Position numbers and translations under genes: made by a program. From a marine bacterium B5-7 (lineage in GTDB: Bacteria > Pseudomonadota > Gammaproteobacteria > BQJM01): DNA of 64,000 nt. Below the pieces are notes generated by a model. It was given only the letters and a program-made list of their open reading frames with translations. It did no database searches and was not told the origin of the DNA. Of the stretch, positions 57,222-58,038 are shown piece by piece. Within the stretch, counting starts at the first letter, position 1. Every line of letters begins with the position of its first letter. The stretch is from assembly GCA_021604705.1 (NCBI GenBank), contig BQJM01000001.1:8276-72275 (forward strand). The letters run 5' to 3'.

Positions 57222-57267
57222 TATCCTCTGTAACGGATAAACATGGGTTTATACCCTGTAGCGGATA
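57222..57267. promoter_or_regulatory. Two HipB-type operators: TATCC-N8-GGATA (57222-57239) and TATAC-N8-GGATA (57250-57267), immediately upstream of hipB.
   Basis: Matches the established HipB operator consensus TATCCN8GGATA. Confidence 0.65.
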
Positions 57268-57285
57268 AAATTGGTACCGGGGGCG
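57265..57285. repeat. 21-bp direct repeat ATAAAATTGGTACCGGGGGCG duplicating the 3' end of tRNA-Leu (second copy at 57945-57966). att-like boundary of the TA islet.
   Basis: Seen in sequence; the repeats precisely bracket dinJ-yafQ. Confidence 0.75.
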
Positions 57286-57286
57286 A

Positions 57287-57583
57287 TTACAGTTTGAATA
57301 GCTCTGCATGTGAGCCAAGCCGAGCTAGATAAACTTCTTGTGTTTCGTGGTTGATTGCGTAGATCAGTAACCAATCTGGTGTGATATGGCACTCACGATA
57401 ATGAAACCAATTGCCCGTGAGTTGATGATCTTGGTATTTTTTTGGCAAGGGTCTTTCATGCTGCAGAAAATCAATCAACGAGGCCAATTTTTCAAGGTTT
57501 TTACCTTGTTTTATTGCCTTTTTCAAATCCTTTTTAAATTGTGTGGCGCGTCGTAAACTAAGTGTCATCCTGCTCCAAATCAT
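57287..57583 (-). CDS. yafQ: YafQ/RelE-family type II toxin (mRNA interferase).
   Basis: KYQDHQLTGNWFHYRECHITPDWLLIYAINHETQEVYLARLGSHAELF matches the YafQ conserved His/Asp/Phe catalytic block. Confidence 0.8.
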   Translation of the reverse strand: MIWSRMTLSLRRATQFKKDLKKAIKQGKNLEKLASLIDFLQHERPLPKKYQDHQLTGNWFHYRECHITPDWLLIYAINHETQEVYLARLGSHAELFKL

Positions 57584-57824
57584 CTAAGAGACTGTTGAAA
57601 TTATTCAAGGGTTTTCCGCCACCGCTGTTTAATTCTTCGATGGCTGCCAGAGTGAGATCGTTGGGAATGCGCATATCAAAGGGAATGCCATTTCGCAGGA
57701 CAATTTGAGCATATAGGGCATTAATCGCCTGTGAGGCGGAAATGCCAATGTGCTTCAAAATTAAATCTGCTTTTGCTTTCAAGTGACTATCTACTCTTGC
57801 TTGTACAGTTGCTGCTTTAGTCAT
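57558..57824 (-). CDS. dinJ: DinJ/RelB-family antitoxin.
   Basis: MTKAATVQARVDSHLKAKADLILKHIGISASQAINALYAQIVLRNGIPFDMRIPN (ribbon-helix-helix). AGGAGA RBS 7 nt before this Met; overlaps the yafQ start. Confidence 0.8.
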   Translation of the reverse strand: MTKAATVQARVDSHLKAKADLILKHIGISASQAINALYAQIVLRNGIPFDMRIPNDLTLAAIEELNSGGGKPLNNFNSLLDDLEQDDT

Positions 57825-57951
57825 GAGACGATCTCCTACATTTATGCACAAATGTAGTTGAATATCATGACATTGTCAATGTTTGGCGACAGAGAATAAC
57901 AGTGAGAAATCAAAAAGGCAAGAAAAAACGATGATTTTTATCAATAAAAAT

Positions 57952-58038
57952 TGGTACCGGGGGCGGGACTCGAACCCGCACGATGTCACCATCACCGGAT
58001 TTTGAATCCGGCGCGTCTACCAGTTCCGCCACCCCGGC
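57952..58038 (-). tRNA. tRNA-Leu (CAA), long variable arm.
   Basis: Reverse complement GCCGGGGTGGCGGAACTGGTAGACGC...anticodon loop GATTCAAAATC...GTGCGGGTTCGAGTCCCGCCCCCGGTACCA. Confidence 0.85.

Follow-up and report, generated by a model that had tools for sequence, protein, structure and literature searches.

To our knowledge, the movement of chromosomal toxin-antitoxin (TA) operons between genomes is poorly documented, and these operons often form isolated islets that bear no visible mobility signature. A dinJ-yafQ pair beside a tRNA-Leu gene in an unclassified gammaproteobacterium, whose metagenome-assembled genome bears the label 'marine bacterium B5-7', raises the question of how such an islet comes to occupy its site. 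An earlier note on this DNA had read the pair as a minimal element integrated into the tRNA gene and bounded by direct repeats of the tRNA 3′ end. Here we examine the 64-kb stretch that holds the islet (hereafter the window), together with relatives in which the same site is filled or empty, and weigh the routes by which the islet may have formed.

The duplicated tRNA-Leu 3′ end

The integration target is a tRNA-Leu(CAA) gene on the minus strand (57952–58038), which is intact, encodes its CCA and has its 3′ end at 57952. ARAGORN calls the gene, and Rfam family RF00005 matches it with 59 bits. A repeat search found an ungapped, exactly identical 19-mer, AAAATTGGTACCGGGGGCG, in two copies of the same orientation with a spacing of 680 bp. 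The tRNA-proximal copy forms an attL-like core (57947–57965) and is 100% identical to the distal copy, an attR-like core (57267–57285) that represents the displaced 3′ fragment of the tRNA gene, oriented as a direct repeat. Fourteen nucleotides of the 19-mer (57952–57965) belong to the tRNA: 3 nt come from the T stem, 7 nt form the acceptor strand, and ACCA completes the end. Trailer makes up the remaining five (or seven to eight) bases. An intact tRNA gene with a displaced 3′ fragment in the same orientation is the signature of integrase-mediated integration and marks the ends of the insert to the nucleotide (PMC4383910). The displaced fragment in the window begins 3 nt inside the T stem, which corresponds to the 'J' crossover subsite, one of three described in that work (PMC4383910).

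The direct repeat that the earlier note had placed around the islet is thus present in both copies, and the tRNA gene is confirmed by ARAGORN and Rfam, but several details of that description change. Its length of 21 bp is reached only with a 1-nt gap, which adds 'AT' and extends the match to 21/22 nt, and the exact identity is 19 bp. Its derivation from the tRNA 3′ end applies to 14 nt and not to the remaining trailer bases. The span given for the second copy, 57945–57966, is one base too high and should read 57944–57965. The earlier note had also considered that the repeat might be widespread, a possibility that would have spoken against its own reading. In the 64 kb of the window, the 15-mer TTGGTACCGGGGGCG with up to two mismatches occurs at two places, and both are the repeat copies; chance predicts 0.05 matches per window, and no shuffle out of 100 gave as many as two. 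Nineteen base pairs is nonetheless a short identity, which counts against integration, and no arm-type integrase sites could be recognised.

Extent and layout of the islet

The interval between the two repeat copies is 661 bp long (57286–57946), and the insert, counted as the islet plus one repeat copy, is 680 bp long (57286–57965, minus strand). The size of about 660 bp in the earlier note therefore holds for the distance between the copies, whereas the insert is slightly larger. The only coding ORFs in the interval are dinJ and yafQ, in agreement with the earlier claim that these are the sole genes between the copies, and they match PF04221 and PF15738, respectively. Both lie on the strand of the tRNA gene. 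The GC content of the insert is 0.40, compared with 0.45 for the window as a whole; only 2.2% of 680-bp windows are as low, which counts in favour of an integrated element.

The islet has no DNA to spare. A single nucleotide lies between the yafQ stop codon and the distal core, 119 nt lie between the other core and the dinJ start, 65 nt separate the tRNA-proximal core from the −35 element of the predicted promoter (see below), and no pseudogene debris was found inside the islet. At its tRNA-proximal end the sequence forms an AT-only palindrome (57932–57951), which reads ATTTTTAT-TG-ATAAAAAT on the tRNA strand and was detected as an arm of an inverted repeat. This palindrome takes in the trailer bases of the repeat and is missing at the empty site of the relative described in the next section.

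An ORF and Pfam scan found no integrase, mobilisation or conjugation genes between the repeats, and the islet is, as had been claimed from its sequence, without an integrase of its own. Likewise, no integrase was found among the 25 window ORFs of at least 150 aa that were scanned. The other 21 ORFs were assigned, by position and order only, to the conserved cluster of ribosomal-protein and RNA-polymerase genes. The inspection for integrases and for further copies of the core covered 64 kb of the 138-kb contig (137,946 bp), to which the exactly matching protein records GJM06334–GJM06340 belong. An extension past the window added only 2 kb on the left, and the protein at the right edge has no record.

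Filled and empty sites in relatives

Two further assemblies carry the filled site. One contig, L081, is identical to the window and spans both junctions. Another, L082, is an independent NCBI metagenome contig from a different sample; it contains the filled site with both repeats and differs by 2 SNPs in 678 bp. Because L081 and L082 both span the two junctions, the arrangement of repeats and islet is not an assembly artefact. The filled site is represented in run DRR328265 and in the sample of GCA_041166445.1.

A four-way alignment shows the 680-bp segment in the window and in L082, whereas it is missing from L083, a contig in ENA that stems from a different sample. The flanking genes of L083 are 82–91% identical to those of the window, its tRNA-Leu(CAA) gene is 100% identical, and both share the gene order of a 622-aa gene, LysE, tRNA-Leu and helicase. 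The L083 tRNA runs straight into ...CGCCCCCGGTACCAATTTTATCCGCTACAGCGG..., so that exactly one repeat copy is present and 680 bp are missing; the distal copy and its left flank join the tRNA body directly. This single-copy empty site proves that the repeat-bounded segment is a discrete unit of insertion or deletion. On excision, the expected junction sequences would be GTAGCGGATAAAATTGGTACCGGGGGCGGGACTCGAACC for the empty site and CAAACTGTAATCGCCCCCGGTACCAATTTTTATTGATAAAAATCATCG for the circle. The earlier note had pointed to relatives for a comparison at tRNA-Leu(CAA), and they provide it, with L083 empty and L082 filled.

The direction of the change is suggested by a more distant relative, L217 (LysE 69% identical, on a 95-kb contig), in which tRNA-Leu(CAA) lies 36 nt upstream of LysE with nothing between them. 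As dinJ-yafQ is absent from both L083 and L217, a gain in the lineage of the window and L082 is the parsimonious interpretation. We hold this with moderate rather than strong confidence: the L217 neighbourhood is itself rearranged, with hipBA upstream of the tRNA gene. Only three relatives span this site. Sampling of the lineage is sparse, and its protein clusters have one or two members. A synteny search based on the adjacent DEAD-box helicase, with one genome per species, gave a best match of 69% identity and found tRNA-Leu near none of the 40 closest loci; that collection contains no close relative. Similarly, homologues of the 622-aa neighbour are at most 50–58% identical, and two of their contexts (P0130 and P0132) showed no synteny.

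The dinJ-yafQ module

The antitoxin gene is of the dinJ/relB type and encodes 88 aa (57558–57824, minus strand). It matches PF04221 (RelB) with E = 1.8e-15 and 57 bits, against a cut-off of 22.4, and its product is 32% identical to E. coli DinJ (E = 9e-13). The toxin gene is of the yafQ type and encodes 93 aa (57287–57568, minus strand, with its stop codon at 57287–57289). It matches PF15738 with E = 5.9e-33 and 113 bits, against a cut-off of 30; its product matches PDB chains of the YafQ family, which has the RelE/YoeB fold, with E = 1e-16 to 2e-20 and is 41% identical to YafQ of E. coli K-12. The antitoxin gene comes first and shares 11 nt with the toxin gene (ATGACACTTAG), an overlap that the earlier note had expected of such a pair. 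That note had also recognised a catalytic His/Asp/Phe block in the toxin. In E. coli YafQ, H50, H63, D67, H87 and F91 are required for toxicity and mRNA cleavage (PMC4652777); these residues align with H48, H61, D65, H87 and F91 of the islet toxin, and all five are identical. By family, gene order and catalytic residues, the islet genes constitute a type II TA module of the DinJ/RelB-YafQ kind, for which toxicity and its neutralisation are predicted.

A candidate sigma-70-like operon promoter, TTGACA and TACATT separated by 17 nt, lies upstream (57851–57879, minus strand); it is predicted from a consensus match only, at 10 of 12 positions. An inverted-repeat search found a palindrome, CTACATTTATG/CACAAATGTAG, over its −10 element (57836–57857), with adjacent 11-nt arms that are 91% complementary. 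This palindrome is the putative operator of DinJ-YafQ. Autoregulated type II modules usually have a palindrome over their promoter, and the putative operator would complete that layout in the islet.

An orphan hipB beside the islet

A second TA-related gene lies just outside the distal repeat. This gene (57217–56933, minus strand) encodes an HTH_3 protein that is homologous to an HTH protein of L217. The two proteins are 49% identical, and the L217 gene directly precedes a HipA kinase gene. Moreover, the region upstream of the window gene aligns with the L217 hipB promoter region. There, in the flank outside the islet, a repeat search together with the alignment to the L217 hipB promoter identified two tandem 27-nt units, both of the HipB operator type (57220–57274). 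Their palindromes read TATCC-N8-GGATA and TATAC-N8-GGATA on the plus strand, or TATCC-N8-GGATA and TATCC-N8-GTATA on the gene strand, and the HipB operator consensus is TATCC-N8-GGATA (PMC3376134). The second unit overlaps the start of the distal repeat. No hipA follows the hipB of the window, and the ORF ends 19 nt before LysE. As judged from these sequence features, the HTH_3 gene is an orphan hipB, the remnant of a decayed TA module. A possible remnant of the hipA start in the tail of the HTH ORF was also considered; the hand alignment matched only 14 of 21 bases and needed a 24-nt insertion, and we do not claim it.

With an orphan hipB as neighbour, the tRNA-Leu site has contained two TA modules. 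The interval from tRNA-Leu to LysE contains the intact module near the tRNA and the decayed module farther out. This order fits a rule reported earlier, by which decay is most advanced in the elements most remote from the target gene (PMC7563491), and it counts in favour of an integrated element. The locus varies further among the relatives. In L083, all but the first ∼8 codons of hipB are replaced by ∼230 bp of unrelated sequence. In L217, hipBA is found upstream of the tRNA, as opposed to the downstream position of the orphan hipB in the window.

Searches for a parent island and further copies

Searches of the protein collection and of genome, metagenome, viral, plasmid and phage sequences yielded neither a parent island nor a cognate integrase, nor any second copy of the islet, which counts against an integrated element. 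The closest YafQ outside the lineage is 63% identical, and this distance likewise counts against an integrated remnant. The same homologue, however, is part of an island that also contains genes for a tyrosine integrase and an AlpA-like HTH_17 protein, a setting that counts for an integrated element. The three closest YafQ homologues adjoin an integrase island, uvrC and a Tn3 transposon, respectively, and no tRNA gene was found near any of the three.

A metagenome scan for attR-like ends with ATTGGTACCGGGGGCGH, a pattern too short to be informative in that collection, gave at least 120 matches. Among the 120 matches listed, 119 are unrelated, and the single exception (L106) resembles a different tRNA gene. 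In the 80 loci checked, no ATTGGTACCGGGGGCGH match fell in an ARAGORN-called tRNA gene and none was preceded by the AAAA of the core. The 19-mer had 0 matches in viral contigs, and neither YafQ nor DinJ has relatives there. A 28-nt segment from the 3′ half of the tRNA was also searched in viral contigs, where its sole match was a phage-borne tRNA-Leu(TAA), which is irrelevant to the islet. With blastn in distant mode, plasmids gave only two short matches of 75–81% identity, both inside yafQ of Psychrobacter and Legionella plasmids, and phages gave no match.

Origin of the islet

The interpretation that we prefer, with a probability of about 0.6, is that the 680-bp segment is an integrated element with an attachment-site core at either end and most likely represents the addiction module left from a decayed island. 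The repeats form the footprint of a minimal tRNA-integrated element, as the earlier note had proposed, and the empty site of L083 agrees with them. That note had offered two histories, a remnant of a larger island or a TA module mobilised in trans. In the scenario preferred here, incoming DNA would have carried a site that matched the 3′ end of tRNA-Leu(CAA) exactly across 19 bp or more, and would have recombined with that gene through a tyrosine-type integrase, with the crossover close to where the T stem meets the acceptor stem. Recombination would have restored a complete tRNA gene and displaced a copy of its last 14 nt, together with the trailer, to the opposite end of the insert. The larger island would then have decayed, leaving dinJ-yafQ as its last surviving piece. 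Loss of the module would allow labile DinJ to decay and would release stable YafQ, a ribosome-dependent mRNA endonuclease, so that deletions sparing the TA pair would tend to persist. This retention step is taken by analogy from general knowledge of TA addiction (PMC2654758). With two intact, identical cores, the islet could still be excised by a cognate integrase that arrives on another element, and an element that integrated beside it (accretion) might carry it along.

The compactness of the islet means that a decaying island must have been reduced by a single lucky deletion, and a primary minimal cassette explains this compactness equally well. Such a cassette would consist of an attP core, the promoter and dinJ-yafQ, would never have carried an integrase, and would circularise and integrate by means of a tRNA-Leu-specific integrase that another element provides in trans; it would be a non-autonomous 'hitchhiker' whose sole cargo is its own addiction module. 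The extreme economy of the layout, with 1 nt between the yafQ stop and one core, 65 nt from the other core to the −35 element and no debris, suits this origin, as do two perfectly identical cores and the precise presence or absence of the unit between relatives. TA modules are also known as 'genomic islets by themselves' (PMC2654758). The unit is nevertheless seen at a single locus, with no second copy in the window and no near-identical module in the protein collection or among plasmids, phages and viral contigs. None of the three closest YafQ homologues examined lies beside a tRNA gene, no integrase is known for the tRNA-Leu site in this lineage, and an attP within 680 bp would overlap the yafQ coding sequence. 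On balance we regard the minimal cassette as possible but unlikely. The related proposal that the 680-bp unit is the mobile element itself, parasitising tRNA-Leu-specific integrases in trans, with such units piling up at the tRNA flank (dinJ-yafQ, then the orphan hipB), seems to us a similarly long shot. If it were true, TA-only tRNA islets would be a general class, discarded by island finders that demand an integrase and a length of at least 2 kb.

More doubtful still is an origin without any site-specific recombinase. The repeat would then stem from a duplication at the tRNA trailer, either illegitimate or microhomology-mediated, or a block of repeat, TA pair and repeat would have been imported from a relative by homologous recombination through the flanks, and L083 would be the product of recombination between the 19-bp repeats. 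The duplicated part, however, is exactly what integrases duplicate, in the right orientation and ending a few bases past the CCA (PMC4383910). The tRNA-Leu neighbourhood is indeed rearranged in this clade, as the positions of hipBA upstream in L217 and of orphan hipB downstream in the window attest, and two other nearby single-gene inserts are bracketed by direct repeats, which are 98 and 42 nt long and not tRNA-derived. Yet import by homologous recombination merely shifts the origin of the repeat to another genome, and RecA-dependent deletion works poorly on a repeat of 19 bp. We consider it highly improbable that the repeat is due to chance or to an assembly artefact and that the TA pair is a plain chromosomal operon downstream of a tRNA gene. 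The 0.05 matches expected per window, the agreement of three assemblies from at least two samples across both junctions, and the L083 empty site, cut exactly at the repeat, all oppose it; nothing specific speaks for it, although the sequence does come from a metagenome-assembled genome. Other classes of mobile element were considered and rejected. A transposon, IS or MITE does not fit, as the ends lack inverted repeats and the 19-bp duplication is the tRNA 3′ end rather than a short, arbitrary target-site duplication. For an integron cassette, there is no attC-like site, the end repeat is the tRNA-derived core alone, and no integron integrase occurs among the scanned ORFs. An Xer/dif-type reading was dropped given that the duplicated sequence is the tRNA 3′ end.

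Comparison with known systems

The module itself is closest in form to dinJ-yafQ of E. coli K-12. Both have the antitoxin gene first, belong to the same Pfam families, share five of five toxicity residues and carry a palindrome over the promoter. They differ in sequence, with identities of only 41% for the toxin and 32% for the antitoxin. They also differ in spacing: the K-12 genes (245961–246239 and 246242–246502) are 2 nt apart, as compared with the 11-nt overlap in the islet, for which activity is predicted from the sequence.

As an element, the islet is a tidy and unusually small case of a known kind, and it calls for no new mechanism. CIMEs are elements that keep attL and attR and lack integration and transfer genes, and they are common at tRNA 3′ ends (PMC5704250, PMC7563491). 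Their sizes range from gene-less 'microCIMEs' of 130–220 bp to elements of 1.2–13 kb, and 215 CIMEs have been described at the tRNA-Lys 3′ end of S. agalactiae (PMC7563491). The islet, which has kept both cores and has no integrase or transfer genes, matches this definition. We describe it as a CIME-like element whose sole cargo is a TA pair; by analogy, it may descend from an ICE or IME and may be open to cis-mobilisation. It resembles CIME19258 and CIME302 of Streptococcus thermophilus and the tRNA-Lys(CTT) CIMEs of S. agalactiae (PMC5704250, PMC7563491, PMC6323972) in its position at the 3′ end of a conserved gene, its attL/attR direct repeats, its lack of integrase, relaxase and transfer genes, its small cargo and the more decayed remnant farther out. 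Unlike these elements, at 680 bp it falls between the gene-less microCIMEs of 130–220 bp and the 'classical' elements of 1.2–13 kb, its cargo is a TA pair only, and its host is a marine gammaproteobacterium rather than a Firmicute.

The islet also shares with the tRNA-gene islands found by Islander (PMC4383910) an intact tDNA with a 3′ fragment in direct orientation, subsite 'J' and an empty site in a relative. In contrast to those islands, it has no integrase gene, and its 680 bp lie outside the length filter of 2–200 kb. Searches of the Islander type would thus reject such islets by design, having neither an integrase nor a length of 2 kb to find, and the dinJ-yafQ islet illustrates how automated island finders miss mini-elements in this way.

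Finally, ccdO157 of E. coli (PMC2654758) is likewise a TA operon that forms its own islet, is flanked by conserved genes and occurs in some relatives but not in others. We compare the two by islet form alone; the dinJ-yafQ islet bears an explicit recombination footprint in the duplicated tRNA 3′ end. It also illustrates the expectation that an addiction module is the last part lost from a decaying island. A nucleotide-precise footprint of the integrase type, together with a matching empty site, implies that at least some TA islets arrive, or stay behind, by way of integration at tRNA genes.

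Gene order around tRNA-Leu

The tRNA-Leu neighbourhood varies in gene order within the clade, as a comparison of the window with L217, the 95-kb contig of a more distant relative, makes clear. The order in L217 is hipB-hipA-tRNA-Leu-LysE (L217:8296-10624), whereas that in the window is tRNA-Leu-(dinJ-yafQ)-hipB'-LysE (56293-58038). The hipB' gene, an HTH_3 gene on the minus strand (56933-57217), adjoins the dinJ-yafQ islet. Its predicted product is 49% identical to the HipB of L217, where hipB is followed by hipA (L217:8296-9854), and the two hipB genes have a promoter/operator region in common; hipA is absent beside the window gene. 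By sequence comparison, we identify the window gene as an orphan hipB. Two operators of the TATCC-N8-GGATA type belong to it (57220-57274), and at the junction the tRNA trailer has a TTTTA in common with the beginning of the hipB operator region. In L083, a related metagenomic strain with an empty tRNA-Leu site, hipB sequence ends ∼8 codons in, and ∼230 bp of unrelated DNA containing a 34-aa Lys-rich ORF takes its place (L083:560-960).

The rplQ (L17)-queA interval varies across the clade; in L217 it holds hipBA and a PemK-type module. Proteins with F-box-like domains and ankyrin repeats are encoded in the window (51929-52636, 62098-62637 and 62723-63598) and in relatives (L217:14305-16254 and, at a further locus, L211:13-894). 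These eukaryote-like domains suggest a host-associated lifestyle. Elsewhere in the window (8304-16889), a type I secretion set (a TolC-like OEP, an ABC transporter and HlyD) lies immediately past tRNA-Lys(TTT), and after it comes a gene on the opposite strand for a 1180-aa RTX-repeat protein.

Repeat-bounded ATPase genes

An AAA_14/DUF4143 ATPase gene on the plus strand (53063-54238), which PADLOC lists as candidate defence gene PDC-S01, is flanked by a pair of 98-nt direct repeats with 97% identity (52827-52924 and 54246-54343). Both repeats contain the terminator-like hairpin GGGTGCCTTGCTGAGCACCC, which occurs only these two times in the window. A second DUF4143/PDC-S01 ATPase gene (59612-60745, minus strand), with only 24% identity to the first, is enclosed by 42-nt direct repeats (59592-59633 and 60762-60803; 90% identical). 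Each of these holds its own hairpin, ATTCCAGAATGG...CTATTCTGGAAT, and the last seven codons of the gene lie within one of them. Counting the dinJ-yafQ islet, the two bracketed ATPase genes bring the number of small repeat-bounded inserts in this 8-kb stretch to three. A third DUF4143/PDC-S01 ATPase (176-1507, plus strand) scores 599 bits to PDLC04788; its gene is upstream of ruvC, and its 3′ end overlaps the ruvC start. Further upstream are a yebC-family gene (TACO1_YebC, on locus L214) and two small unannotated ORFs.

Closest outside YafQ homologue

Outside the lineage, the nearest YafQ homologue (63% identity) belongs to a metagenomic island (L205:825-4604), and the 6.5 kb read there contains no tRNA gene. 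The island also carries genes for a DUF6538/tyrosine integrase and for an AlpA-like HTH_17 protein.
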